Source: an uncultured Bacteroidia bacterium (GTDB lineage Bacteria; Bacteroidota; Bacteroidia; Bacteroidales; CAJPTX01). Taken from it: a DNA stretch of 64,000 nucleotides. This document shows positions 1,911 to 52,255 of the stretch, one piece after another (positions within the stretch are counted from its first letter, which is position 1; each line of letters opens with the position of its first letter). A model generated the notes under the pieces. The model was not told the DNA's origin and searched no databases. It saw nothing but the letters and a program-made list of their open reading frames with translations. Both the position numbers and the translations under genes were made by a program. Where the stretch lies: assembly GCA_938038735.1 (NCBI GenBank), contig CALHSW010000074.1, positions 16,302-80,301 of the forward strand. Direction: 5' to 3'.

Positions 1911-2663
1911 TTGAAAATATCAAAAGTACTAGTATCGCAGCCGAAGCCAACGAGTGCCTACGCGCCCTACGCAAAGCTAGAGCAATCGTGCGGGATAGAG
2001 ATTGTCTATAGGCCGCTAATTCACGTAGAGGGAGTGTCGGCGTTTGAATTTAGGAAGCAAAAGGTGGACTTCTCTAAGTTCGTAGGGGTGATATTTAATA
2101 GCAAGGTGGCGATAGACCATTTTTTCCGGCTGTGCACGGAGCTACGTTACCAGGTACCCGATACGCTACTGTACTTTTGCATAAGCGAGAGCGTGGCGCT
2201 CTACCTGCAGAAGTATGTGACGTACCGCAAGCGGAGGGTGTTTAGCTCCGCGTCAGGGGCGATGGAGGAGATGTTGCCCGAGATGCTCAAGCGAAAGGAG
2301 GAGCGGTTCTTGTTCCCGATGTCCAACGTGCAGGGCCCTGAGCAGATGCGGGAGCTGAAGAAGGCAGGGCTACACATCAAGAAGGCCATCCTATATAATA
2401 CGGTGAGCAGCGATGTGCGAGATTTGGACATCCAGGCCTTCGACATGCTTGTCTTTTACAGTCCCTTCGGCGTGGCATCCCTGATGGAAAATTTTCCAGA
2501 CTACAGCCAGGGGGACACCAAGGTGGCTGTTTACGGGCGGAATACGCAGCGAGCCGCGAAGCAGGCGGGGCTGAAGGTGGACGTAATGGCCCCCACATCG
2601 AAGTGCCCAAGTCTGACCGATGCCATTGAGGCGTTCATTTGCGAGCAGAATAAAGTGGAGTAG
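1911..2663 (+). CDS. hemD: Uroporphyrinogen-III synthase-like protein (HemD family)
   Basis: 250-aa ORF beginning KISKVLVSQPKP...YAKLEQSCGIEIVYRPLIHVEG..KVDFSKFVGVIFNSKVAIDHFF, which matches the Bacteroidetes HemD-like pattern. Non-ATG (TTG) start. Confidence 0.7.
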   Translation: MKISKVLVSQPKPTSAYAPYAKLEQSCGIEIVYRPLIHVEGVSAFEFRKQKVDFSKFVGVIFNSKVAIDHFFRLCTELRYQVPDTLLYFCISESVALYLQKYVTYRKRRVFSSASGAMEEMLPEMLKRKEERFLFPMSNVQGPEQMRELKKAGLHIKKAILYNTVSSDVRDLDIQAFDMLVFYSPFGVASLMENFPDYSQGDTKVAVYGRNTQRAAKQAGLKVDVMAPTSKCPSLTDAIEAFICEQNKVE

Positions 2664-5037: not shown

Positions 5038-6303
5038 ATGGCAGGAGCGAATAGGGTAGATGTAGAAGCGATAAAGCGGCGCTTTGGGATAATAGGGACG
5101 CATCCGGCTTTGATCCAAGCAATAGAGGTGGCGTACCAGGTGGCGGGCACGGACCTGTCGGTGCTGGTGCTGGGCGAGAGTGGGGCAGGGAAGGAGTTTT
5201 TCCCAAAAATAATCCACCAGTACGGAGCGAGAAAGCATGGGCAATATATCGCGGTGAACTGCGGTGCGATTCCCGAGGGAACGATAGATTCGGAGCTGTT
5301 TGGGCACGTTAAGGGGGCGTTTACGGGGGCGGTGGAGAACCGAGCTGGTTACTTTGAGGCGGCCGATGGGGGTACGATTTTTCTAGATGAGGTGGCGGAG
5401 CTTCCGCTCTCGACGCAGGCTCGTTTGCTTCGCATGTTGGAAAGTGGGGAGTTTATGCGGGTGGGGTCGTCGCAGGTGCAGACGGTGGATGCGCGGATTG
5501 TTGCGGCGACCAACGTGCGACTCGATGAGGCCATCGCCGAGGGGAAGTTCCGAGAGGATTTGTACTATAGGCTGTCAACCATCCCGATAAGGGTGCCGGC
5601 GTTGCGGGAGCGAGGCGATGATAGCGTGCTGCTATTCACGCATTTCGCCGTGGAGTTTGCGGAGCGGTACAAGATGCCGCCGGTGCGGCTTACCGATGAG
5701 GCGCGGCAGCTATTGGTATCGTACCCATGGCCGGGCAACGTGCGGCAGCTCAAGAATATTACCGAGCAGATATCAATAATAGAGACGAGCCGGGAGCTTA
5801 CGGCGGAACGTTTGAATGCATATCTCTACCCCGATGGGCGGCGACCTTTGCCCGCCGTCTACAAGGAGGACCAGGCCGAGGGGAAGAGCGAGCGGGAGTT
5901 GCTATACAGCGTGCTATACGACATGCGGCATGACATGAATGACCTCAAGCAGCTCGTTTTTGACCTAATGCAGCGGCAGCACGTGCAGCCGAGCGATAGC
6001 TTCCTATCACAGCACCAGCGGATTATCCGTACGCTTGCACCCCACGAAGATGAGACATTTATGCCGCAGTCCCGCTTTCAGGATGGGCCTCCCATGGGCG
6101 AGGTGGTTCATTCAGAGCCGGTAATTATAGAGCATGAAGACAAGGAGGACGCACGGCAGTCGCTGGCGAGCGTGGAGGAGCAGACGATACGTGAGTGTTT
6201 GCGTCGTCATGACGGAAGAAGGCGGTCGGCCGCCGAGGAGCTAGGGATAAGCGAGCGGACCCTTTACCGAAAGATTAAAACGTACGGAATAGAGGACGAA
6301 TGA
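5038..6303 (+). CDS. Sigma-54-dependent transcriptional activator (AAA+ and Fis-type HTH, no N-terminal regulatory domain)
   Basis: Walker A GESGAGKE, GAFTGA loop (KGAFTGAVENRAGYFE), ELFGH, and C-terminal HTH AAEELGISERTLYRKIKTYGI. Only about 25 aa precede the AAA+ core. Confidence 0.9.
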   Translation: MAGANRVDVEAIKRRFGIIGTHPALIQAIEVAYQVAGTDLSVLVLGESGAGKEFFPKIIHQYGARKHGQYIAVNCGAIPEGTIDSELFGHVKGAFTGAVENRAGYFEAADGGTIFLDEVAELPLSTQARLLRMLESGEFMRVGSSQVQTVDARIVAATNVRLDEAIAEGKFREDLYYRLSTIPIRVPALRERGDDSVLLFTHFAVEFAERYKMPPVRLTDEARQLLVSYPWPGNVRQLKNITEQISIIETSRELTAERLNAYLYPDGRRPLPAVYKEDQAEGKSERELLYSVLYDMRHDMNDLKQLVFDLMQRQHVQPSDSFLSQHQRIIRTLAPHEDETFMPQSRFQDGPPMGEVVHSEPVIIEHEDKEDARQSLASVEEQTIRECLRRHDGRRRSAAEELGISERTLYRKIKTYGIEDE

Positions 6304-6827
6304 TGTGTAAGCGTAAGATTGACAGATTACTGTGTAAAGTGTTAGTGCTGTGTTGCGTGCTGGTTTCTACAGGGTGCTCAATACGGTATTCGTTTACAGG
6401 CGCGAGCATCCCACCTAGCGCGAAGAGCGTGTCGGTGGCCCCGTTCCCCAATGTGGCGCCGCTGGTTAATGCCACGTTTGCCTCGGCCTTTGTGGAGGCG
6501 TTAAAGGATCGTTTCACTTCGCAAACGCGTCTATCAATACAGGATTATGGGGGCGACTTTGATTTTGAGGGGGAGATAACGGGGTACTCGGTGGCGCCCA
6601 CGGCGATTCAGGGGAATGAGACCGCCGCAATGAATAGGCTTACCGTGACGGTGCATGTGAAATTCACGAACAACCTGGACGAGAAGGCGAGCTACGATAA
6701 GAGTTTTTCCGCCTACGAGGATTTTTCATCGGCGCAACAGCTCACACAGGTGGAGGGGGAGCTTGCTCCCAGGTTGATAGAGAAGTTGGTGGATGACATT
6801 TTTAATGCGGCGGTGGCGAACTGGTAA
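6300..6827 (+). CDS. lptE: LptE-like LPS-assembly lipoprotein
   Basis: ATGA overlap with the activator gene. Lipoprotein signal with lipobox (LVSTGC), 175 aa, and the usual Bacteroidales position after the sigma-54 activator. Confidence 0.55.
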   Translation: MMCKRKIDRLLCKVLVLCCVLVSTGCSIRYSFTGASIPPSAKSVSVAPFPNVAPLVNATFASAFVEALKDRFTSQTRLSIQDYGGDFDFEGEITGYSVAPTAIQGNETAAMNRLTVTVHVKFTNNLDEKASYDKSFSAYEDFSSAQQLTQVEGELAPRLIEKLVDDIFNAAVANW

Positions 6828-6862
6828 TGCGGCATGGCGGTCGGCAGTGCCATAAAAATGAT

Positions 6863-6870
6863 TACCTTTG
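6863..6870 (+). promoter_or_regulatory. -7 promoter box TACCTTTG
   Basis: Exact TAnnTTTG match 32 nt upstream of the ATG at 6902. Confidence 0.55.
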
Positions 6871-6901
6871 CGAGGCTACTAAGGGAAACGAAGCATAGCT
6901 G

Positions 6902-8161
6902 ATGTTGACGCTAGATGGATTGGGGAAACTGTTGACGCAGAGCGACCATGGGACTCCTATGACGGAGTCGGAGGTGGAGGCACTGTGCGCTCAGTACCCC
7001 TATTTCCATGCGGCGCAGCTCTATAGAGCTGTGCTAGCTGAGCGGCAAGGGGAAGGGGGAGAAAAGACGAACAATGCGGTGCTGACCCCCGATAGGCTAG
7101 TTCTCTATTCGCTTGTGCATGGAGCACCGTGCGATTACGAGGCAGCAGAAGAGGGGCAGCTTGAGGAGGCGTGGGAAACGCAAACGAGTGCGGCAGAGTC
7201 GCTGGAGCTTGTTCAAGAGCAGGAGGGTGTAGAGGATGAGGTAGAGGAGCTTACCGTATGCGCCGAAAGGGATGAGACCAGTGAGAATGGGGAAGGCGGA
7301 GTGTCAGCATCGCAAGAGCAAACTGCTGTTGTGGAGGTGCAAGAGGAGGAGGCTCCGGTGCAGGAGACATTGGCAGGGGCTATAGAAAGGGAGCGAGAGG
7401 AAGGGAGCGTAGAGGCGGAGAAGGGAGAGATAGGAGCGTTTGGCGAAGCGGTTCCTGCTGTTGAGGAGGAGTCAGCGGTTGCGGCAAGCGATTTAGAGAC
7501 ACCGTTAGAGACGGAGGTTGCTGCGACAGAGAGTGTCTGCAACGATGAAGCGGCAGTTGAAGCACCAGGGGAGGCTGAAGGGGCAGCCGTGGAGGCGAGT
7601 GGAGAAAGTGAGGATATTTCGCAGGGGGAGAGCGGGACTAGCGATTCGGGCGAGGTGCCCACGTTGGATCTCCGCGGGGTGCTGGAGTTTTCGCTTTCGC
7701 AAGAGGTGCCAGGCATGGCGCCGAGCCTATCAACGTTTAGCGCAGCTGATTTCAATCTCACCCAAAAGGATATAGACTACATCAATACGCACCTCAATCC
7801 GCAGCGGGATGAAAGTGCGGAGGGGCAAGAAGATGGAGTTGCAATTGAGGAGGAGAGGCAGTCGCAGGCTCAACGTATAGATAGCTTTATAGAAAATTTT
7901 GATAGCATTCTATCGAAGGTCCTGCGAGAGGAGCGGGAAACTGCGGAACAAGGCGTGGAGCCTGAGGATCTGTCGGAGTCGCAGCAGCAGTTAGACTCGC
8001 ATATTGCAAGCGAGCGGTTGGCATTCCTGTTGGCTGAAAAGGGAGAGTATGGCGTGGCGATTCCGATGTATGAGAGGTTGCAAGCGCAAAATCCGGAAAA
8101 AAGTAGTTACTTCGCGGAGATTATAGCGCGCTTGAGACGGCGCGAAGAAGAGAATCAGTAA
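6902..8161 (+). CDS. Highly acidic Glu/Ala-rich protein with structured N- and C-terminal ends
   Basis: 419-aa ORF with a central ~250 aa of E/A/V/S low complexity. The termini are ordered (…QYPYFHAAQLYRAVLAE…, …ERLAFLLAEKGEYGVAIPMYERLQAQNPEKSSYFAEII…, TPR-like). Confidence 0.5.
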   Translation: MLTLDGLGKLLTQSDHGTPMTESEVEALCAQYPYFHAAQLYRAVLAERQGEGGEKTNNAVLTPDRLVLYSLVHGAPCDYEAAEEGQLEEAWETQTSAAESLELVQEQEGVEDEVEELTVCAERDETSENGEGGVSASQEQTAVVEVQEEEAPVQETLAGAIEREREEGSVEAEKGEIGAFGEAVPAVEEESAVAASDLETPLETEVAATESVCNDEAAVEAPGEAEGAAVEASGESEDISQGESGTSDSGEVPTLDLRGVLEFSLSQEVPGMAPSLSTFSAADFNLTQKDIDYINTHLNPQRDESAEGQEDGVAIEEERQSQAQRIDSFIENFDSILSKVLREERETAEQGVEPEDLSESQQQLDSHIASERLAFLLAEKGEYGVAIPMYERLQAQNPEKSSYFAEIIARLRRREEENQ

Positions 8162-39393: not shown

Positions 39394-39735
39394 GCTGCAT
39401 CGGTCTGCAAAAATTTATGAGGGTTTCATAGGAAAACCTGTATGGGTTCGTGTGGAACTACGAAAGGCATAGTGTGCAGGTTATGACGAAGGGTCGTGCG
39501 ATTCCATCCGATTGAGAGACCGTTCTTCGGACAGGGCTGCATTGCGGCGAAAATTTATGCGGGTGGAAGGGATGCATGCAGGTTACGGCGTGAGCTTGGT
39601 TGCCTATGGCTGCTGCGAAACAATGCGCAAGACCGTACCGCAGCGGGTTGCGAAATGTGGGGGCGGTCATCTGCAGTGGCCCTCGCTATTGAAAGCGCAG
39701 ATATTGAGAAGGGTGCGGCGCAGCCGCTGCGCTTT

Positions 39736-39824
39736 CCGTCCGTAGGACGGTCTTTGAATAGCCGGGGGTTTTCAAACCCCCAGTACTCTGCCCACAGGGC
39801 AAAAGCAGTCTGAAAGACTGACCC
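39736..39824 (+). repeat. Four-hairpin repeat element, copy C3
   Basis: CCGTCC-GTA-GGACGG; GGGGGTTT-TC-AAACCCCC; TGCCC-ACA-GGGCA; CAGTCT-GAA-AGACTG. Confidence 0.85.
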
Positions 39825-40074
39825 TGGCGCCCCATTGTATGCGCAAATTCAACGTTGGAATTAACGCGGAAGGGCTGCAGAGCGGTGAAAATCTATGCAG
39901 GATGGGGGCATCGCATGCAGATTGCGTTGGGAGCTTGGTTACCATAGCTGCTGCAAAATAATGCGCAAGGCCATGCCGCGGCAGGTTGCGAAATGTGGGA
40001 GGCGGTCATCTGCAGTTGCCCGCGCCATCGGAAACGCAGATATTGAAAAGGGTGCGGCGCAGCCGCTGCGCCTT

Positions 40075-40163
40075 CCGTCCGTAGGACGGTCTTTGAATAG
40101 CCGGGGGTTTTCAAGCCCCCGGTACTCTGCCCACAGGGCAAAAGCAGTCTGAAAGACTGACCC
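40075..40163 (+). repeat. Four-hairpin repeat element, copy C4
   Basis: Near-identical to C3, 339 nt downstream. Confidence 0.85.
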
Positions 40164-40456
40164 TGGCGACCCATTATAAGCGCAAATTCGATGTGAGAAT
40201 TAACACGCAAGGGCTGCGCGGGTAAGCCAGATTGAGAGACCGTCCTACGGACGGGGCTGCACTGCGGCGAAAATTTATGCGGGCGGGAGGGATGCATGCA
40301 GGTTACGGCGTGAGCTTGGTTGCCTATGGCTGCTGCGAAACAATGCGCAAGACCGTACCGCTGCATGTTGCGAAATGTGGGAGGCGGTCATCTGCAGTTG
40401 CCCGTGCCATTGAAAGCGCAGATATTGAAAAGGGTGCGGCGCAGCCGCTGCGCTTT

Positions 40457-40545
40457 CCGTCCGCAGGACGGTCTTTGAATAGCCGGGGGTTTTCAAACCC
40501 CCGGTACTCTGCCCGCAGGGCAAAAGCAGTCTGAAAGACTGACCC
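40457..40545 (+). repeat. Four-hairpin repeat element, copy C6
   Basis: Near-identical to C3 and C4, 382 nt downstream of C4. Confidence 0.85.
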
Positions 40546-40694
40546 TGGCGACCTATTCCACACGAAAATTCAATGTGGGATTTCACATGGGCGGGCTGCG
40601 AGGGTAAGCCCGATTGAGAGACCGAGACTGCGGATATGGCTGCAGTATGGCGTGAGATCGCCCCCGGGGGACGCCCTAGAGTAAGGGGAGAGGG

Positions 40695-42428
40695 CTAGCA
40701 TTGGGCATTTGAAGGAGGAACGGAATCCGTTTGGGGTGCGGCCGCTAGCTCCTTGATGGTTGAGAATGGCGCCCACCATTGGCTCTCATTGTTCCGAAGG
40801 CTTTTTACTTCACCTTGCGGCACGTAGAGCGTAGCAGAGCTAGCAATTCCGATAAAGGCACTGTCGCTTACCTCCATTGTGCCGGTGTTCTGTAGGCAGT
40901 ATACCCCATTCAGCTTGCCGCAATGGCTAAAGGCATCCTCGCCTATGCTGGCAGTGCCTAGCGGGATGGTTATTTTTTCCAGGGAGGGGCAGCCGTAAAA
41001 TGCGCCATCACAGATGGTTTTGATGCTGTTTGGAAGTCTGACTGATTGAAGGGAGAGGCAGCCGTTAAATGCGGTTTCACCGATGGTTTGGACTCCATTG
41101 GGAATGGTTATGTCGGTTAGCTTGGCACCGCAAAACGCATAGTCTCCGATGGCCAGTACAGAGTTAGGAATCTTACAGGGTCCAATTCTTCCCCCTGGGT
41201 AGCTTATCAGCGTTTCGCCGTTTTTGGTGTAGAGTAAACCGTCAGTAGCTTGGTAGTTCCCATTGTCAGGGGACACCCCAAAGCTTTCCAGCGATTGGCA
41301 GTTGAGGAATGCGCCGGGCGGCACGTTGGTAACGCTTGAAGTTATATGGATCGCGGTTAGCCGGCTGCAGTAGGCAAAGGCGTAGTACCCAATTTCCTGC
41401 ACTCCTTGGGGAATTGCATAGACCCCAACCTTGCCGTTGGGGCAGGAGACGAGGGATTGCATGCCCCTGCTGAAAAGCACCCCATCTGCCGTGCAGTAGT
41501 ATTCATTACCCTCCGCCACCTCAAATCGCTGTAGCCTAGAGCATGCATTGAATGCGCTGATGCCGATGGATGCCGTACCGTTGGGGATGGCGATGGAGCT
41601 TAATGCTTGGCAGCCGAAAAATGCGTGGTCCCCGATGGTCGTTAGGCTGGGCGGGAGGGCGATAGAGACGAGGGCGCTACAGCCATAGAATGCGCCGTAA
41701 TCAATGGCGGTGACGCTGCTGGGGATGCGCACCGTGATGAGCTTGTGGCAGTTGTAAAAGGTGCCGCATTGGATGATGGTGATCCCATGGGGTAGGGATA
41801 TTGATTGGAGCTGGCTACAGTCGCTAAAGGCGTAGTTCCCAATGGTTTCCACGCTGTCGGGCAGGGTAAGGGTTTGGAGATTGCGGCAGTTGTAAAATGC
41901 ACCCTCCCCAATGGAAATTAGATTTTCGGGGAGGGTTAGAGCGGTTAGCTCGTCGCAATCTGCGAATGCGTAGTCCCCAATTGCAATCACCCCAGATGGC
42001 ATCTCGTACGTTTCGCCTTTGCGAGGAGGGTGGCGAAGGATGGTCCTTTTATCTCGGCTAAAGAGCGTTCCCGCCACAGCGCAGAGCACTTCGTTGTCGT
42101 CATCCACTTCAATCCCCTGTAGCGCGGTGCATCCGCTGAATGCGCATATTCCAATAGCCGCGACGTGCGCGGGGATGCGAATGGCGGTGATCTCCGTGCA
42201 ATCGGTGAAAGCGTAGTCGGCAATCGCCACAACCCTAAGGGGGGCGCCACTCGGGGTGGGGATTGTATTGGGGATGGCTACAGAGCCGCTAATAGCCTTG
42301 CCGTTCGGTTTGATTATGCACGCATTCTCCGTTTCGGCATATTGGAATAGCCATTCAATGCCATTGTCAACGTAGCTTACCCAGTCGTAGTTGATGTCTT
42401 CGCTGTTTAGAATCATAGCCGTTGCCAT
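40695..42428 (-). CDS. BspA-type leucine-rich-repeat protein lacking a signal peptide and T9SS CTD (paralog of 31943-33661)
   Basis: About 17 LRR_5-type repeats (IPNSVLAIGDYAFCGAKLTDITIPNGVQTIGETAFNGCLSLQSV...). The N-terminus MATAMILNSEDINYDW is not hydrophobic. An in-frame TAA lies two codons upstream of the ATG. The protein ends 20 aa after the shared ATLYV...WW motif. Confidence 0.8.
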   Translation of the reverse strand: MATAMILNSEDINYDWVSYVDNGIEWLFQYAETENACIIKPNGKAISGSVAIPNTIPTPSGAPLRVVAIADYAFTDCTEITAIRIPAHVAAIGICAFSGCTALQGIEVDDDNEVLCAVAGTLFSRDKRTILRHPPRKGETYEMPSGVIAIGDYAFADCDELTALTLPENLISIGEGAFYNCRNLQTLTLPDSVETIGNYAFSDCSQLQSISLPHGITIIQCGTFYNCHKLITVRIPSSVTAIDYGAFYGCSALVSIALPPSLTTIGDHAFFGCQALSSIAIPNGTASIGISAFNACSRLQRFEVAEGNEYYCTADGVLFSRGMQSLVSCPNGKVGVYAIPQGVQEIGYYAFAYCSRLTAIHITSSVTNVPPGAFLNCQSLESFGVSPDNGNYQATDGLLYTKNGETLISYPGGRIGPCKIPNSVLAIGDYAFCGAKLTDITIPNGVQTIGETAFNGCLSLQSVRLPNSIKTICDGAFYGCPSLEKITIPLGTASIGEDAFSHCGKLNGVYCLQNTGTMEVSDSAFIGIASSATLYVPQGEVKSLRNNESQWWAPFSTIKELAAAPQTDSVPPSNAQC

Positions 42429-42555: not shown

Positions 42556-42765
42556 CAACGTGAGGAAGGGTTGCAGGGTGCGACGGAACGGCATGGGCTG
42601 GAGCTCGGCGATTGGGAATGGCGTGTAAAGGACTCCAACCCGAATGATTTTTCCTTTAGTTTTTCGGCAGATGTGGCGGGGAGTTCGGTTGAGGCGGAGT
42701 ACAGCACCCGCACCGCTAGCACTGAAGACTGGACGCTCATAGAGGAGGAGCGGCAGCGTAGCAGC
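42556..42765 (+). pseudogene. Internal fragment of a TonB-dependent receptor gene (copy of 47666-47966 with two deletions)
   Basis: The fragment translates to EEGLQGATERHGLELGDWEWRVKDSNPNDFSFSFSADVAGSSVEAEYSTRTASTEDWTLIEEERQRSS, versus DEGLE..GAQGATERHGLELGDREWRVKDSNPNDFFFSFSADVAAPLPHAFQLDAGLAADVAGSSVEAEYSTRTASAEDWTPIEEERQRSS in the full gene. Confidence 0.85.
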
Positions 42766-43002: not shown

Positions 43003-43010
43003 TACCTTTG
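43003..43010 (+). promoter_or_regulatory. -7 promoter box TACCTTTG (distal candidate for the RiPP-like cassette)
   Basis: Exact TAnnTTTG match 117 nt upstream of the ATG at 43127. Confidence 0.4.
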
Positions 43011-43088
43011 CAGCCGCAGTTGTATTTGCGGGTGAAATTTTCCTTTCAAAGGTCTCAGTAGAGGATTTGCGAATTGAAAAATAAGTGC

Positions 43089-43096
43089 TACATTTG
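43089..43096 (+). promoter_or_regulatory. -7 promoter box TACATTTG (proximal candidate for the RiPP-like cassette)
   Basis: Exact TAnnTTTG match 31 nt upstream of the ATG at 43127. Confidence 0.5.
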
Positions 43097-43126
43097 CGTA
43101 GAGGTTAACTTTAAAATTTTGTTACT

Positions 43127-43309
43127 ATGGATGATTTGTTGTCTTTCAGCGTGGTAGATTTGAGCGACTTGACTGAGGGTATGTCATGTGAGATGTACGA
43201 TGGATGTCAGAATAACCATGGGCGTTGCGGGCAAGGGTGCGGTTGTGGTGGATCTAAAGGGGAGTGCGGCGGATGGATTGACCCAAAAAGTCAAATAGGT
43301 TCCCACTAG
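43127..43309 (+). CDS. Candidate RiPP precursor peptide (60 aa, six Cys, Gly-rich core)
   Basis: MDDLLSFSVVDLSDLTEGMSCEMYDGCQNNHGRCGQGCGCGGSKGECGGWIDPKSQIGSH. It has an acidic, Cys-free N-terminal 17 aa and a Cys/Gly-rich core. ATG start 31 nt after a -7 box, stop 21 nt before the rSAM gene. Confidence 0.65.
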   Translation: MDDLLSFSVVDLSDLTEGMSCEMYDGCQNNHGRCGQGCGCGGSKGECGGWIDPKSQIGSH

Positions 43310-43330
43310 CATTAAGCAGCGAGATTGGAA

Positions 43331-44752
43331 ATGGAGAGTGCTACGTTTCTACATGTGAAGCAGCTCCATTTGATTTGGGGCGTAGGAGATGGCGGAGCCG
43401 TGGCCTACGCCCCAACGAATGGTTGCATCGTTGAGTTGCAAAAGGGTTTAGCGGAAGCAGTTAGGCTATATCAACAGGAAGGGTGTTTTCATCACGAAGG
43501 CATGAGTTCAGACGATGTGCGTGAAGCGTTGGAAAAATTAGAGGCGCAGCTTTGCTTTGCTTCGCAGAGAATGGAAGAGACGGGGCATTGCGATGCTGGT
43601 AAGTCGGTTCTGAACCGTGTTACGTTGCACGTTTCAAACGATTGCAATCTGAATTGCTCGTACTGCTATGCGCTGGGGGGAGACTATGGTCACGAAAGAG
43701 GATTGATGACGAGGCAAACAGCAGTTGATGTCGTTGATTTCCTTTGTCAACAGTTTGATCGGGTTGAGCATGTAGTCTTTTTCGGTGGAGAGCCAATGCT
43801 GAATACACCGGTTATAGAAACGGTATGTGCACAGTTCAAAGAGGCGTACGATCGGGGGCAAATAGAGGCAATTCCTAAATTTGGGATTATAACAAATGGC
43901 ACGATTTTAAACGACAAGGTTGTTTGTTTGATAAGAGACCACATCGATTTTATTACAGTTAGTTTAGATGGACCGAAAGAGATTCACGATTTCAATAGAA
44001 GGAAAAGGGATGGTCAGGGAAGTTATGACGATGTGAATCGTTTTATTCGGCGAATTCAATCTGAAACAGATGTGAAGGTGCGCTTTGAGGGAACGGTCAG
44101 CAAAGAGCATCGGCGAAGGCGGATTAGTGGGCGAGATTTGTATGACTTTGCATATTCCACTTACGGCATTTACGGTTCTGTAGCAACGGATATTCTTGCT
44201 GATGATCGGAGGCATGTGATTCAGGAGGATTCAGAGGATTGGCATACTGAACGTACCATTCTCGGCATACCAGAAAGCCAATTTTACGACACGGGGGTTG
44301 ATCAGCTTCTTCCAGGGCTTGTGCATAATGTGTACCGCGAGATGTGTCCGGTGGGAGAAAACATTGTGTCGATTGACATTCATGGAGACCTGTATGCGTG
44401 TCACATTACTGTAGGTACCAAGAGGTTAAGTTTGGGTTCAATATATGGGGACAATATTTTTACTAGTAGGAATAGGTACGAAGAGCGTTTCCCCTTTTTA
44501 CGTGTGGTCAGAAAGAATCATCAGAAATGTCAGAAATGTTGGATGCGTCGCTTATGTGGAGGCTGTGCCATCCGATGGTTTTTTGATATCTCTGAAATGA
44601 ATTTTCTCGGAGAGCCTAAGCAGGGAATGTGCGAGGCGCAGGGGGAGGAGTTTGAGAAGATTATTGCTGAGCTAGTGAAGGCAAAAAAGGATCCACAAGC
44701 ATGGGATGCTTTGAAAACGTTGCTTCAGACGGTGGGACAGTTGGAGTGCTAG
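43331..44752 (+). CDS. Radical SAM/SPASM-domain peptide-maturase-like enzyme with a ~100-aa N-terminal extension
   Basis: CNLNCSYC (CxxxCxxC) about 100 aa from the N-terminus, FFGGEPML, a C-terminal MCPVGENIVSIDIHGDLYAC (C-x12-G-x4-C) and CQKCWMRRLCGGC auxiliary-cluster cysteines. Confidence 0.85.
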   Translation: MESATFLHVKQLHLIWGVGDGGAVAYAPTNGCIVELQKGLAEAVRLYQQEGCFHHEGMSSDDVREALEKLEAQLCFASQRMEETGHCDAGKSVLNRVTLHVSNDCNLNCSYCYALGGDYGHERGLMTRQTAVDVVDFLCQQFDRVEHVVFFGGEPMLNTPVIETVCAQFKEAYDRGQIEAIPKFGIITNGTILNDKVVCLIRDHIDFITVSLDGPKEIHDFNRRKRDGQGSYDDVNRFIRRIQSETDVKVRFEGTVSKEHRRRRISGRDLYDFAYSTYGIYGSVATDILADDRRHVIQEDSEDWHTERTILGIPESQFYDTGVDQLLPGLVHNVYREMCPVGENIVSIDIHGDLYACHITVGTKRLSLGSIYGDNIFTSRNRYEERFPFLRVVRKNHQKCQKCWMRRLCGGCAIRWFFDISEMNFLGEPKQGMCEAQGEEFEKIIAELVKAKKDPQAWDALKTLLQTVGQLEC

Positions 44753-44756
44753 TTAA

Positions 44757-46490
44757 ATGGTGTCATTAGGGAGACTTCATCGTAGCGTACGGGGGATTCG
44801 TCCCTACCTTTTGCCGTATAGTGGAGAGTGTTTTGTGGGGGTTTTAGGGATGTTGATGAGTGTATTCTTATTGCTGCCCGTGCCGCTTCTTACGAAACAC
44901 CTCGTAGATGATGTTATTCCATTGGGAGACGTGAGCGGGGTGGTCACGATTTGTTTGCTAAGTGGAGCGATTTTGATTGCTTCGAGCATTAGCGGATATT
45001 TTCAGAAATATTATCTTGGGAAGTTTGAACTGGATGTGTTCAAAGACATTCAGCTGTCGTTAGTCCGAAAATTGCGCAGTGTGGATCCTGCGTATAGACA
45101 TACTCAGCAGACGGGATACCTTCTATCACGGGTTACAGATGACACAGGGCGGTTACGATCCCTGTTCACGGATGTCTTAGCGAATTTAGTTAAAGATGTT
45201 CTAATTTTAGTGGTGGGAATCATTCTGCTGTACTATTTGGATTGGCGTTTAGCTTCTATTGCACTTATAACGTTACCATTTTTTATTGCGACTTGGTATT
45301 ATTTCAATTCAAAGATACGGTTGGCAGCCGTTAGATGGTACGAACAGAGTGCACAGTACACAAAAAAGCTTGAGGAGACGATTGGTCTTCTTGATACCGT
45401 AGTTGCGCTTCACGCTTCCGCATTTGACATGAACAAGCTGTGTAAACAGCAGGGGAAGGTGGTAGAGGCAGGAGTTAAAAAGAATGGTGTCGAAGGCATT
45501 GCGAGGGTAGTCATTTCAATAATCGGCGGGCTGTCACCGATTCTTATCATAGGGTTTGGATCTCATTTTATTTTTCAAGGAACGTTTTCATTGGGCGGAC
45601 TAATCGCATTTAATACGCTTACGGGATATGTTTTTGGTCCTTCGTCGCGTATGGTAAATTCTTTGCTCAGTATGCAACAAGGGGTGGCGGCGTGGGAAAG
45701 GGTTGAGGAAATTTTACGCCTTCCGGAGTGCATAAGGATGTCTGATGCAAAGAGTGAGCATTTGGTTGGCTATGAAGGAGCAATTTCCATCGAGTTGCGA
45801 AATGTTACAGTTCGATATGGAGTCAGAGATGCCATAAACGATGTGTCTATTACGGTACCGGATGGCTCTTTCGTGGCTCTTGTGGGAGAAAGTGGAAGTG
45901 GGAAAAGTACTATTATGAGAACTGTTTTGGGGATTCAGGCAGCAACAGCTGGATCTGTTCTGTTTAATGGGTTGCCCATGCATAGAGGAGAGCAGTTATC
46001 TACATTTCGCATTGCGGTATTATCGCAAGAACCGAATTTATTCGCAACTACGATACGCGAGAATATTCTCTTGGGTTTGGACGATTACGACGTAATGGTA
46101 CAGGCAGCTAGAGATGCGCAAATTGCAAGTTTTATTGGTACGTTGCCGAGAGGATACGACACTAGGATTGATGAGAGGGGAATTAATCTTTCTGTAGGGC
46201 AAAAACAGCGCATTGCGTTGGCGAGATGCTTAGTGATGAATCCGAATCTTTTGTTGTTAGATGAGCCAACTTCGAATCTTGACATTGAGTCGGAACGTCA
46301 GTTGTGGGATGCACTTCGTCCTATAATGCGTAAGCGTACCACGATTATGGCAGCGCATCGTCTCCATACTATTAGTGAAGCTGATTGTATATACGTTCTT
46401 TCGAAAGGTAGCGTAGTAGAGCAAGGTACACACTCCGCATTACTCAAATTATGCGGTCAGTATAGTCGGCTTTGGAATATGTACAGGTAA
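44757..46490 (+). CDS. ABC exporter, fused TMD-NBD half transporter (no C39 peptidase domain)
   Basis: Six predicted N-terminal TM helices. Walker A GESGSGKST, signature LSVGQKQRIALARC, Walker B LLLLDEPTSNLD, H-loop AAHRL. Start 4 nt after the rSAM stop. Confidence 0.9.
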   Translation: MVSLGRLHRSVRGIRPYLLPYSGECFVGVLGMLMSVFLLLPVPLLTKHLVDDVIPLGDVSGVVTICLLSGAILIASSISGYFQKYYLGKFELDVFKDIQLSLVRKLRSVDPAYRHTQQTGYLLSRVTDDTGRLRSLFTDVLANLVKDVLILVVGIILLYYLDWRLASIALITLPFFIATWYYFNSKIRLAAVRWYEQSAQYTKKLEETIGLLDTVVALHASAFDMNKLCKQQGKVVEAGVKKNGVEGIARVVISIIGGLSPILIIGFGSHFIFQGTFSLGGLIAFNTLTGYVFGPSSRMVNSLLSMQQGVAAWERVEEILRLPECIRMSDAKSEHLVGYEGAISIELRNVTVRYGVRDAINDVSITVPDGSFVALVGESGSGKSTIMRTVLGIQAATAGSVLFNGLPMHRGEQLSTFRIAVLSQEPNLFATTIRENILLGLDDYDVMVQAARDAQIASFIGTLPRGYDTRIDERGINLSVGQKQRIALARCLVMNPNLLLLDEPTSNLDIESERQLWDALRPIMRKRTTIMAAHRLHTISEADCIYVLSKGSVVEQGTHSALLKLCGQYSRLWNMYR

Positions 46491-46511
46491 CCTAAAACCT
46501 ACGTAAATATT

Positions 46512-48935
46512 ATGTGCAACACATCTAGAGGAAGACACGGGGCGTGGGTGGTGCTTTTAGCGGCACTGCTGCTGTGCGCTCTGCCTATGGGCGCAGCGGC
46601 GCAGCGCAAAGAGAAGAAGGAGCAGGGGCGCGGACACGAGCTGGTGGGGCGTGCCGTGGACTCTACATCAAGGCAGGGGGTTGCCTATGCAACGGTGCAG
46701 CTGGTTACGCCAGAAGGCGAGGTTTTCAGCGGTGCTATCTGCGACTCTGAGGGAAACTTTAAGCTGGTCAAGGTGCCGAGCAAAGCGTTGTCCATCAAGG
46801 TTCAAGCACTTGGTTATAAGCCTAAAACGCTACATCTCGATTTAGAAAGTACAAAAAACAATGATTTTGCGATAGGCGACGTACCGCTTACCATTGACCA
46901 GCTCGCCATTGAGCAGGTGACCGTGAAGGGGGATGCCCCATTCCTGATGCTAAAGCCTAACCGCAAGGTGGTAACGCCGCAGATGGAGGATCTGGCAGCG
47001 GGCGCCGTGATGACCGATTTGCTCAAGCGGATTCCGGATTTTGAGGTGACCTCTCCAATGGACATCACGCTGCGGGGTGCAGCGTTCCGGGTGCTTATTA
47101 ATGGGAAGCCGTCGGGGCTTTCCACTACACAGCTCAACACAATAAATTTGGCCGAGGTGGCCTCCATTGAAATTATCACCACGCCTTCCGTGCGCTATAG
47201 GGCGAGCGATGTGGGCGGGGTGGTGAATATCAAACTAAAACGCTACCAGGTGGGGTTTAACTCCGTGCTGCAAGCTGCGGGCGGTTCGGATAACTGCTAC
47301 AGCCTATCGGCATCGGCCAACGTGGGGCTAAAAAAGGTTAACTTCTTCGGGGCGTTGTTCGGGGGATACGAGGGGGCAAGAAATGCGTTCACCTATAGTT
47401 CTACCGATGCGCATGGCGAGCCCTTGGAGCGTTACCAGCTCAACGACCGAATGAATAATTTACGATTACGGCCTAAGGTTGGCATCGATTACCTCCCCAC
47501 GCAAAAAGACGTGCTGTCAATTTTTTGGGCAATGGACTACTATAACGACAAGTATACGCGGCGCGCGGAGCGAACGTACAAAGCGCAGGCAATCCAGCAT
47601 GGCGGCGGGCTATCGCGAGAGCGGATGATGTCGAATGAGGCTAATGCGCTGTACACGCACACCTTCAACGACGAAGGGCTGGAGCTGTCCGTATCGGCCA
47701 TCGGGACGCTTGACGGTGCGCAGGGCGCGACGGAACGGCATGGGCTGGAGCTCGGCGATCGGGAATGGCGTGTAAAGGACTCCAACCCGAATGATTTTTT
47801 CTTTAGCTTCTCGGCAGATGTGGCGGCGCCACTTCCGCATGCCTTCCAGCTGGATGCAGGGCTTGCGGCGGATGTGGCGGGAAGTTCGGTTGAGGCGGAG
47901 TACAGCACCCGCACCGCTAGTGCTGAAGACTGGACACCCATAGAGGAGGAGCGGCAGCGTAGCAGCTCCCTAACGCAGGTGTATGGTGCCTATGGTGACC
48001 TTTCCTGGGAGGCGAGCGACAAGGTGACTCTAAACGCAGGCGTACGCTACGAGCATTACCGTATGCGCAGCAACGATGAGCGGCAAAGCAACCCGTACGG
48101 CCGTCATGCCAATGATGCTTTCTTTAGCGGGGGCGTGGCGTATACCCCCATCAAAGCACTACATTTTTCTTTGAGCTATAGCGGGAGGGTGGATCGGCCC
48201 GGGGCATCAATGCTCACATCGGCAAAACGCATGGCAGATTTTTACAATGAGTTTTCTATTGGCAACCAGAGGTTGATGTCGGCCTACTCGCATGGGGTGG
48301 AGCTCAGCATGGCGCAGCGGATGGAGAGTTGTTCGTTCTACGAGGATGCAAAGTGGACGTATATAGCGAACCCTATAGAGTCGTACTCGAGCAAACTAAC
48401 CGATTCTACGTGGCTAAAGAGCTACGTAAATCTAAAGCAGGAACGAAACCTATACGTTGGCGTGGGGGGAAATTGGGATGCCGCATCGTGGTGCAGCGTG
48501 TGGTTTAATGCGAGGGGGCAGGGGGTGAAGAGTCAAGACAAAGGGGGCGATTGGCTGGTTAATGATGAGTGGAGTTTTGGCGTGCGGATGGGCGCGGACT
48601 TCCCCATCAATAGCATGTGGGCACTCACCGCATGGGGTGGCTACAGCAGCGCGAGGCGCAACGCGTACCGTCACTACAAGGCGCAGCCCGCATTGAATGC
48701 GGGTGTGTACTTCTACCCGCTTAGGAATAGGAGTTTCGTCCTCGTTCTGCAGGGCATAAACCTTTTGACTACCGGTATGAACTACACGACGCATTCGGAT
48801 GGGGTGACGGCGAATTGGGATTTTGATTGGCAAACCCGGGCGGTATACCTGAACGTGTATTGGCGTTTCGGCGGTGCGTACCGTTCCAAGACCGGCGAGC
48901 GGTTCAATTCGGATATTAACGCGGTTGGGAGGTAG
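46512..48935 (+). CDS. TonB-dependent receptor-like outer-membrane beta-barrel protein with an N-terminal carboxypeptidase-regulatory-like domain
   Basis: Signal peptide ...LPMGAAA|Q, CarbopepD_reg-like GRAVDSTSRQGVAYATVQLV..EG..FSGAICDSEGNFKL, a plug-like region (VTVKGDAPF..), then a long beta-barrel region. Confidence 0.8.
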   Translation: MCNTSRGRHGAWVVLLAALLLCALPMGAAAQRKEKKEQGRGHELVGRAVDSTSRQGVAYATVQLVTPEGEVFSGAICDSEGNFKLVKVPSKALSIKVQALGYKPKTLHLDLESTKNNDFAIGDVPLTIDQLAIEQVTVKGDAPFLMLKPNRKVVTPQMEDLAAGAVMTDLLKRIPDFEVTSPMDITLRGAAFRVLINGKPSGLSTTQLNTINLAEVASIEIITTPSVRYRASDVGGVVNIKLKRYQVGFNSVLQAAGGSDNCYSLSASANVGLKKVNFFGALFGGYEGARNAFTYSSTDAHGEPLERYQLNDRMNNLRLRPKVGIDYLPTQKDVLSIFWAMDYYNDKYTRRAERTYKAQAIQHGGGLSRERMMSNEANALYTHTFNDEGLELSVSAIGTLDGAQGATERHGLELGDREWRVKDSNPNDFFFSFSADVAAPLPHAFQLDAGLAADVAGSSVEAEYSTRTASAEDWTPIEEERQRSSSLTQVYGAYGDLSWEASDKVTLNAGVRYEHYRMRSNDERQSNPYGRHANDAFFSGGVAYTPIKALHFSLSYSGRVDRPGASMLTSAKRMADFYNEFSIGNQRLMSAYSHGVELSMAQRMESCSFYEDAKWTYIANPIESYSSKLTDSTWLKSYVNLKQERNLYVGVGGNWDAASWCSVWFNARGQGVKSQDKGGDWLVNDEWSFGVRMGADFPINSMWALTAWGGYSSARRNAYRHYKAQPALNAGVYFYPLRNRSFVLVLQGINLLTTGMNYTTHSDGVTANWDFDWQTRAVYLNVYWRFGGAYRSKTGERFNSDINAVGR

Positions 48936-52015: not shown

Positions 52016-52089
52016 GGCCTCGTAGCTTAACTGAATAGAGCATCTGACTTCGGATCAGAAGGTTGTGGGTTTGAATCCCGCCGGGGTCA
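52016..52089 (+). tRNA. tRNA-Arg (anticodon TCG)
   Basis: Hand-folded cloverleaf with acceptor GGCCTCG/CGGGGTC, anticodon stem TCTGA/TCAGA, loop CT-TCG-GA and T-arm GTGGG-TTTGAAT-CCCGC. 74 nt, no encoded CCA. Confidence 0.85.
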
Positions 52090-52173
52090 CTAGGGTGCAG
52101 AGATTGGAAGGCGTTGAGATTGATAGTGAATAGAGGAGTGGGTGTAGCAGAGGAGTAGAGAAAAATAGATGAG

Positions 52174-52247
52174 GGCTCCGTAGCTTAACTGAATAGAGCA
52201 TCTGACTACGGATCAGAAGGTTGTGGGTTTGAATCCCGCCGGAGTCA
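52174..52247 (+). tRNA. tRNA-Arg (anticodon ACG)
   Basis: Same body as the upstream tRNA, with acceptor GGCTCCG/CGGAGTC (compensatory change) and anticodon loop CT-ACG-GA. 74 nt. Confidence 0.85.
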
Positions 52248-52255
52248 CTAGAGGG

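Follow-up and report, generated by a model that had tools for sequence, protein, structure and literature searches.

Gene clusters for peptides made on the ribosome and modified after translation (RiPPs) that are built around a radical S-adenosylmethionine (SAM) enzyme with a SPASM domain are a known kind, and uncharacterised families of radical SAM RiPPs are common. In the Bacteroidales, no class I bacteriocin or radical SAM RiPP has been characterised so far (PMC10352776), and the same study raised the question of how modified peptides of the Bacteroidota cross the outer membrane when their clusters encode neither a membrane-fusion protein nor TolC. The locus described here bears on that question, and lies at positions 43127-48935 of a 64,000-nucleotide (nt) stretch of DNA, hereafter the window, from contig CALHSW010000074.1 of an uncultured Bacteroidia bacterium (assembly GCA_938038735.1). 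The host, a gut-type bacterium which HtpG places within the Bacteroidales, represents an uncultured lineage, because the nearest named relatives of its HtpG are only 61-64% identical. Four open reading frames (ORFs) of recognisable domain content, the first of them belonging to a definable precursor family, make up a gene set whose linkage is conserved between lineages. The set is probably a RiPP operon, in which a short peptide would be cross-linked by a radical SAM/SPASM maturase, exported by an ATP-binding cassette (ABC) transporter, and passed through the outer membrane by a TonB-gated protein.

Several described systems resemble the locus in part. The CteB/CteA pair (thermocellin), of the SCIFF ranthipeptides, likewise combines a radical SAM core and a seven-Cys SPASM domain with a Cys-rich precursor encoded just upstream, and its N-terminal recognition module has a putative counterpart in the window, but the maturase of the window (ORF2) reaches only 147 bits against the SCIFF model (cutoff 425), the leader and core of the precursor (ORF1) differ, and SCIFF loci are clostridial and normally without an exporter or an outer-membrane protein, whereas ORF1 to ORF4 are carried by a Gram-negative member of the Bacteroidales. 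The PapB/PapA pair (freyrasin) gives the best score of ORF2, 189 bits, and is alike in that a single enzyme would introduce several cross-links into a core of repeated short Cys modules. Here too the cutoff, 340 bits, is missed, the profile is confined to the catalytic part of the protein (ORF2 residues 96-412), and the C-x3-D repeats of freyrasin provide Asp acceptors, whereas the C-G-x3-G-x-C modules of ORF1 have no conserved acidic acceptor. With NxxcA/NxxcB, which were compared by precursor motif, the likeness lies in the N-x-x-C unit (PMC8326336), present as N-G-x-C in most ORF1-family members (18-19 of 31). The peptide of the window has His and Lys in place of the Asn, however, the ORF1 family carries two to four units against the single unit of NxxcA, and the NxxcA system is streptococcal, quorum-regulated, and has no outer-membrane component. 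StsA has a Cys/Gly-rich core like that of ORF1, in which the invariant residues other than Cys are Gly, but its motif is CxCxCx4GxGxG rather than two C-x6-C boxes, and ORF2 scores 58 bits against StsB, for which the cutoff is 625.

Two further comparisons concern the setting of the locus. The Bacteroidales clusters with double-glycine (GG) leaders described by Fernandez-Cantos et al. (2023), together with three relatives found in this work (loci L092, L142 and L143), come from the same bacterial order, and the three relatives fall in the maturase clade of ORF2 (35-40% identity). Shared features are the leader motif LDLSDL/LDLTEL, a PF14905 outer-membrane protein adjoining the maturase, and the lack of a fusion protein, but their leaders end in GG and their transporters are peptidase-containing ABC transporters (PCATs) with a C39 domain, whereas the window family has neither and possesses a double-box core of its own. 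At the outer membrane, Oar of Myxococcus xanthus has a signal peptide, a CarboxypepD_reg domain, a plug with a TonB box, and a barrel, the domain architecture of ORF4 with its TonB-box-like motif, and provides an outward route that has experimental support (PMC6434023). Oar, however, exports a folded protease, PopC, and its gene lies with neither its cargo nor an ABC exporter. In NCBIfam, Pfam and the open-access literature, no description was found of the precursor family, of the maturase clade, of the combination of a GG-less leader with a C39-less exporter, or of the obligatory pairing with an Oar-type gate.

All four genes lie on the forward strand in the arrangement given by an earlier sequence-only reading of the window, with ORF1, the precursor of 60 amino acids (aa), at 43127-43309, ORF2 at 43331-44752 (alternative TTG start at 43325), the ABC half-transporter ORF3 at 44757-46490, and ORF4, a TonB-dependent-transporter-like outer-membrane protein of 807 aa, at 46512-48935. 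The intervening gaps, read from the sequence, are 21, 4 and 21 nt, and a scan of the cluster found no terminator-like site between the four genes; on this spacing they appear to form one operon.

ORF1 contains 6 Cys and 12 Gly residues among its 60 aa, and can be divided into a leader with the motif LLSFSVVDLSDL (aa 4-15, 43136-43171) and a core, GCQNNHGRCGQGCGCGGSKGEC (aa 26-47, 43202-43267), consisting of two C-x6-C boxes and a C-G-C bridge. The earlier reading could name no precursor family for the peptide and saw no SCIFF-type leader; in keeping with both remarks, ORF1 has no Pfam match and no NCBIfam match at E<=0.01, and the SCIFF precursor model in particular does not match it. It does belong to a family, of which 35 distinct peptides were found in total. 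The leader motif (L/F)(L/F)SF-x-(I/V)(I/V)DLS(D/E)(L/I) is present in 34 of these peptides, and the core pattern G-C-x4-G-x-C-x2-4-C-x-C-x4-G-x-C in 31, the latter describing two C-G-x3-G-x-C boxes linked via C-G-C. Within each box both Cys residues never vary, nor does the Gly at position 6, whereas position 2 is mostly Gly and position 5, three residues before the closing Cys, is mostly Asn, which the window peptide replaces with His in one box and Lys in the other. A Trp (CGGW) is conserved in the window subgroup. One member, encoded at 2035-2271 (+) of L141, is 78 aa long with 9 Cys and carries four GCGNxxGNC boxes, and the box can therefore be regarded as a repeatable module and the core as modular.

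That ORF1 might be a chance ORF is contradicted by a hidden Markov model (HMM) built from 12 precursors of loci other than the window, which was searched against 17,467 small ORFs in 1.39 Mb and matched ORF1 with E=1.5e-16, the sole ORF of the window to be matched. The same model found nothing below E about 0.1 in some 80 SCIFF-type control loci. A scan of reference genomes with the maturase alignment returned, among the matches listed, only Clostridia-type relatives at no more than 32% identity, which were reused as negative controls. Retention of a homologous small ORF beside homologs of the maturase, which the sequence-only reading had left as a point to be checked, is evident over a range of 36-97% maturase identity: L005-7 (97%) have the same peptide, two copies accompany the maturase of L001 (47%), one copy that of L090 and two that of L088 (both about 40%), a single precursor lies 5 kb upstream in L003 (42%), and two copies are present in L141 (36%). 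A truncated, leader-only second copy of the precursor was also noted at 491-559 of L090.

Searching in the reverse direction, from precursor to maturase, gave a concordant picture. A hand-written degenerate DNA pattern, from which the leader was excluded, was scanned against metagenomes and yielded 48 stretches, 41 of which were GC-rich simple repeats and were discarded; the 7 genuine stretches all bore the leader, and all were accompanied by maturase, ABC and outer-membrane protein genes wherever the contig was long enough. Exhaustive searching with HMMER through 1.84 billion representative proteins returned 28 matches, 26 of them genuine short precursors, and a word-indexed protein search with the ORF1 peptide returned only 3 entries. 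Across the collections searched the family is thus rare and patchy, and protein databases contain hardly any of it, since its ORF tends to be overlooked or called in the wrong frame. For instance, public gene calls within the precursor ORF of L005-L007 are 32-36 aa long, that of L005 (3096-3194) being 32 aa in another frame, and the four-box ORF of L141 had likewise been annotated in a different frame.

The linkage of the genes is as well conserved as the precursor. Eight lineages have a double-box precursor on a contig of sufficient length (the window with L005, L001, L090, L088, L141, L131, L132, and L003 with L127), and in all eight the precursor occurs together with the maturase, a C39-less ABC transporter, and an outer-membrane protein with CarboxypepD_reg, Plug and barrel domains. 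Three gene orders are represented, namely precursor-maturase-ABC-outer-membrane protein, precursor-maturase-outer-membrane protein-ABC, and a precursor set apart from an outer-membrane protein-maturase-ABC group. Because the association persists in every lineage and through three gene orders, the TonB-type protein belongs to the system itself and does not simply adjoin it. The sequence-only reading had it following the cluster, which is correct as to position, but as a mere follower it was underrated, being a conserved fourth component. In L003 (654-9127) and L127, genes for a DUF6249 protein, an extracytoplasmic function (ECF) sigma factor, a DUF5056-like protein (26.0 bits, where Pfam sets its cutoff at 28) and a DUF4097 protein separate the precursor from the outer-membrane protein-maturase-ABC group, and are possible dedicated regulators.

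This conservation bears on the proposal that the system consists of ORF1 and ORF2 alone, a SCIFF-like intracellular or housekeeping substrate with its enzyme, beside which the transporter genes are unrelated. Clostridial SCIFF systems usually have no dedicated transporters, and the GC content at third codon positions (GC3) of ORF4 is unlike that of ORF1 to ORF3, as the proposal would have it. The wide distribution of SCIFFs, which has been taken to argue against an antimicrobial role (PMC8326336), also counts in its favour. Yet homologs of the ABC transporter and the outer-membrane protein are encoded in each of the eight lineages in an order shuffled three ways, which would be unexpected of chance neighbours; the 4- and 21-nt gaps without a terminator speak against it as well, as does the rarity of the family, with 26 representative clusters in 1.84 billion proteins, and the failure of the SCIFF precursor model to match. 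A purely intracellular two-gene system is consequently very improbable.

The sequence of ORF2 contains every motif that had been pointed out in it, including the CxxxCxxC motif CNLNCSYC (C105-x3-C109-x2-C112; aa 105-112, 43643-43666), the C339-x12-G-x4-C357 element, and CQKCWMRRLCGGC at aa 400-412. The last, C400-x2-C403-x5-C409-x2-C412, and C434 complete the SPASM pattern of seven cysteines (C339, C357, C400, C403, C409, C412 and C434; 44345-44632), which together with CxxxCxxC is invariant across 35 homologs. Seven is also the number of SPASM cysteines reported for CteB (PMC10352776). Pfam identifies Radical_SAM (64 bits, cutoff 29.5) and Fer4_12 domains. In comparisons with NCBIfam models and their cutoffs, ORF2 matches 71 models, every one below its curated threshold, with the best scores for PapB (NF047865), Nif11 (TIGR04064, 175 bits), SCIFF (TIGR03974) and QhpD (TIGR03906, 137 bits), then for ScfB-like (128 bits), GggB (124 bits) and CcpM (118 bits). 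Relative to cutoff PapB stands highest; the cutoffs of GggB, CcpM, StsB and GG_samocin_CFB (TIGR04148) were not reached, and six relatives from the same clade fall under every curated cutoff as well. ORF2 is assigned on these profiles as a radical SAM/SPASM peptide maturase of a clade outside every curated family. The earlier reading had named an anaerobic sulfatase-maturating enzyme (anSME) as one outcome that would undo its interpretation, but the scores run the other way, at 189, 175 and 147 bits for the peptide maturases PapB, Nif11 and SCIFF and about 92 for anSME, a level shared by the cyclophane synthase and DynA models. The anSME identity was rejected, its 91.7 bits being well under the peptide maturases and set against a cutoff of 349; no sulfatase gene was found in any neighbourhood examined. 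The maturase scores and the retained small ORF together support that reading's description of the locus as a RiPP-type precursor, maturase and exporter.

Structural comparison leads to the same relatives. CteB is the best match to ORF2 by sequence in the PDB (E=1e-35), and the AlphaFold2 model of ORF2 (pLDDT 86.6, pTM 0.85) has CteB as its top Foldseek match, with E about 1e-21 over about 480 columns that include the N-terminus and the SPASM domain. The N-terminus is modelled as a beta-beta-beta-alpha-alpha module (about aa 13-84), and its profile gives weak matches to TigE (residues 16-79, E=0.004), to CteB (residues 16-71, E=0.36) and to many winged helix-turn-helix domains; no PqqD or RiPP recognition element (RRE) match was obtained from Pfam. 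In its predicted fold the module looks like a recognition element.

As to the chemistry, intramolecular thioethers are moderately favoured, because the seven best family models belong to thioether synthases where these have been characterised, because the seven-Cys SPASM domain is as in CteB, and because known precedents fit the core. NxxcB joins Cys to the Cbeta of Asn in N-x-x-C, forming a beta-thioether (PMC8326336), and StsB makes three Cys-to-Gly alpha-thioethers, which demonstrates that Gly is usable as an acceptor (PMC10288494). By analogy, Cys-Gly sactionines are possible in the ORF1 core. An alternative is that ORF2 installs a change of another kind, such as Calpha epimerisation, C-C or C-O cross-links, or Cys oxidation, while the Cys residues of the peptide form disulfides or only bind an auxiliary cluster. 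The chemistry of SPASM enzymes is varied, ORF2 lies under every curated cutoff, and SuiB, the epimerase EpeE, ChlB and anSME are among the other significant fold matches of its model; furthermore, the only invariant residues of the core are Cys and Gly, so a side-chain acceptor is undefined, and the window subgroup has its conserved Trp. That Trp, however, is missing from most family members, the seven top models score 1.3-2 times as high as the cyclophane synthase, DynA and anSME models, the CteB-like set of seven SPASM cysteines is compatible with an auxiliary cluster that has a site free to bind a substrate thiolate, and the core suits both the StsA Cys-Gly sactionines (PMC10288494) and the NxxcA N-x-x-C beta-thioethers (PMC8326336). 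A modification other than a thioether is on balance unlikely.

Pfam finds ABC_membrane and ABC_tran domains in ORF3, in agreement with its original description as an exporter with a transmembrane and a nucleotide-binding domain, and no Peptidase_C39 domain either in ORF3 or in the ABC transporters of L001 and L141. The nearest bacterial half-transporter is PCAT1, with an alignment restricted to PCAT1 residues 180-722, and the HlyB, NHLM and bacteriocin-ABC profiles align to ORF3 from about position 150 on. ORF3 is predicted to be the inner-membrane exporter of the modified peptide. ORF4 has a signal peptide, CarboxypepD_reg at aa 44-121 (36.9 bits for PF13620 and 34 bits for PF13715), Plug (30.2 bits, cutoff 23.9), TonB_dep_Rec_b-barrel (36.4 bits, cutoff 27) and OMP_b-brl_3 (127 bits), and no Pfam match to an STN domain; by sequence, no relative is detectable in the PDB. 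A TonB-box-like segment, IEQVTVKGD, lies at aa 133-141 (46908-46934), and the corresponding pattern (L/I)(E/D)E(V/I)xV(T/V)(G/A)D precedes the plug in 7 cluster outer-membrane proteins whose mutual identity is only 16-31%. Plug was also found in the outer-membrane proteins of L088 and L141.

The evidence leans towards ORF4 working outward, as an exit for the peptide, because of the precedent of Oar, the occurrence of PF14905 proteins across RiPP classes, and the Bacteroidales clusters that pair an ABC transporter and an outer-membrane protein without a fusion protein. Oar combines CarboxypepD_reg, Plug and a TonB-box, and is needed for secretion of PopC in a TonB-box-dependent manner (PMC6434023). 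PF14905/TonB-type outer-membrane proteins recur in Bacteroidetes RiPP loci of several classes, where export has been predicted (PMC8939145), and Bacteroidales RiPP clusters often encode an ABC transporter and an outer-membrane protein but no membrane-fusion protein (PMC10352776).

The same set of genes could also describe a shuttle instead of a weapon, on the model of siderophores and methanobactin, in which the cross-linked Cys/Asn/Gly-rich peptide is exported by ORF3, captures a metal or serves as a private signal outside the cell, and is re-imported through ORF4 acting as its own TonB-dependent receptor, in the manner of MbnT. Metallophore systems classically consist of an ABC exporter and a cognate TonB-dependent transporter, with neither TolC nor a membrane-fusion protein, and the Plug and TonB-box-like motif kept by ORF4 and its cluster homologs are hallmarks of importers. 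The C-x-C and closely spaced Cys residues of the core resemble metal-binding motifs, although few metal ligands would be left if thioethers consumed the thiols. One outer-membrane protein paralog accompanies each precursor-maturase unit of L143, as expected of ligand-specific receptors, and the ECF sigma factor, DUF5056-like (below its Pfam cutoff) and DUF4097 genes of L003 and L127 are a faint echo of receptor-coupled regulation. Nevertheless, the N-terminal extension of ORF4 is of the CarboxypepD_reg type and not an STN signalling domain, none of the eight lineages encodes a metal-responsive regulator, a reductase or a periplasmic binding protein in its cluster, and the first exit of a 2-4 kDa peptide through the outer membrane would be left without an explanation. 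The association of PF14905-type proteins with unrelated classes of Bacteroidetes RiPPs (PMC8939145) is more easily explained by a general role in secretion. A shuttle of this kind is the less likely reading but a serious rival, and if real it would give the Bacteroidota their first RiPP metallophore, or their first RiPP coupled to uptake.

The leader of ORF1 preserves a trace of the ancestry of the system. The sequence-only reading noted that it is not a classical double-glycine leader, and the GG is indeed absent, but the leader is not unrelated to that class. In the more distant relatives L092, L142 and L143 (35-40% maturase identity), the precursors have the LDLSDL/LDLTEL motif followed by a canonical double-glycine end, e.g. 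ENLDLSDLEEVEGG, with the consensus LDLSDLxx(V/I)EGG, and the window leader reads VDLSDLTEGMSC where these relatives read LDLSDLEEVEGG. Because these relatives keep the full motif, the window leader is a derivative of a double-glycine leader that has lost its GG site. Only one of the 34 leader-bearing double-box peptides, P0351, has GG at the leader end. The cores of the three relatives differ from the double-box core, and their maturases adjoin a PF14905 outer-membrane protein with no C39-less ABC gene in the cluster. In L143 (5660-13362), two tandem precursor-maturase-outer-membrane protein units encode GG-type leaders with cores ...GVGCSC and GCSAVFSGGC..., and a C39-ABC (PCAT) gene lies about 6 kb away on the opposite strand. 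The outer-membrane proteins of the two units are 55% identical and the maturases 41%, and since each precursor-maturase unit has its own paralog, each appears to keep its own gate. Loss of the GG site in the window family matches loss of the C39 peptidase from its transporter, and the pair would offer a clean natural case of leader-transporter co-evolution. On the contig of L091 a second, different radical SAM system was observed (5516-7193), with a precursor whose leader ends in KLRGG and whose C-terminal residues are SCACGCV, another uncharacterised RiPP of Bacteroidota type.

The mechanism that best fits these observations, and that is probably correct in outline, would begin with translation of ORF1 into its 60-aa precursor, whose leader LLSFSVVDLSDL would dock on the RRE-like winged-helix module at the N-terminus of ORF2. 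ORF2, as a CteB/PapB-like enzyme with a SAM-cleaving [4Fe-4S] cluster and two auxiliary SPASM clusters, would generate 5'-deoxyadenosyl radicals and cross-link the core, the most likely product having intramolecular thioether rings formed from five conserved Cys residues in the two boxes and the central C-G-C. The product would then be carried over the inner membrane by the peptidase-less ORF3 and passed through the outer membrane by ORF4, as an Oar-type TonB-dependent gate. Leader removal, if any, would depend on a factor encoded outside the cluster. The peptide would act outside the cell.

A number of points weigh against parts of this scheme. Transfer of function from named families to ORF2 is weak, because ORF2 and the relatives tested lie far below the cutoffs, and the Pfam SPASM model itself gives 19.4 bits, just under its cutoff of 21.5. 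The recognition role of the N-terminal module draws on a predicted fold and weak profile matches only, and the type and positions of the cross-links are guesses, because Gly is the only conserved residue available as an acceptor and the usual Asn is His or Lys in the window. Nearly all characterised TonB-dependent transporters are importers, Oar being the lone precedent for the opposite direction, and the pairing of outer-membrane protein and maturase in L143 fits ligand-specific recognition, which would be expected of a receptor as much as of an exit gate. The four genes are read as one putative operon from their spacing, and because the GC3 of the outer-membrane protein gene differs from that of the biosynthetic module, the two may differ in history here.

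Should ORF4 prove to work outward, it would be the first Oar-type exporter of a peptide natural product, and would define a route across the outer membrane for RiPPs of the Bacteroidota. The four-gene set is a compact test case, in which the direction of an Oar-type gate is directly testable. New cross-link chemistry or topology is possible from a maturase outside the curated families, and the defined leader and modular core are suited to leader-guided engineering.

Upstream of the operon, a candidate promoter of the Bacteroidetes type spans 43066-43096 (+). The TACATTTG box, to which the earlier reading had drawn attention, was found at 43089-43096, ending 31 nt before the ATG of ORF1, and TTTG is present at 43066-43069, separated from it by 19 nt, in the -33/-7 layout that is the consensus for Bacteroides-type promoters. 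The call is plausible rather than proven, because TAnnTTTG by itself shows no more than weak enrichment across the window (41 occurrences, 28 expected); a second TACCTTTG occurs at 43003. A sigma-70 promoter scan was uninformative, with 8 sites against 7.7 expected for a promoter type that is wrong for the Bacteroidota, and Rfam scans gave no match inside or upstream of the cluster.

Base composition hints at the history of the locus. GC3 is 0.46 in ORF2 and 0.42 in ORF3, but reaches 0.66 in ORF4 and lies between 0.60 and 0.74 in other window genes, with the break exactly at the ORF3/ORF4 junction, and a similar split is seen in L001, L003 and L092, whose hosts are different and of higher GC content. 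Just upstream of the operon, at 42573-42765 (+), lies a decayed 193-nt copy of part of ORF4 (47720-47966, codons about 404-485), 93-95% identical to it, with a 54-nt deletion flanked by a short GATGTGGCGG repeat. L005, the 97% relative, shares this copy, which is probably the scar of an earlier duplication, rearrangement or recombination. An origin of the repeat within ORF4 as a mobile or tRNA-derived insertion was considered and rejected, the segment aligning with native, conserved outer-membrane protein sequence and containing no tRNA. Together, the GC3 break and the 193-nt copy hint that the biosynthetic module was exchanged beside a resident outer-membrane protein gene.

Elsewhere in the window, a tandem array at 39528-40624 consists of about 3 copies of units of about 340-380 nt that match at 86-87% and contain GC-rich inverted repeats such as CCGGGGGTTTGAAGACCCCCGG; Rfam gave no match to it, and the only ORFs within it overlap one another and look spurious. 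Divergent from the cluster, at 40695-42428 (-), is a gene for a 577-aa leucine-rich-repeat protein (LRR_5, from Pfam on the identical gene of L005), a BspA-like surface protein in appearance that is not conserved beside related clusters. Finally, two tRNA-Arg genes 84 nt apart, at 52016-52090 (TCG) and 52174-52248 (ACG), both on the forward strand, lie downstream of the gene for ribosomal protein L19.

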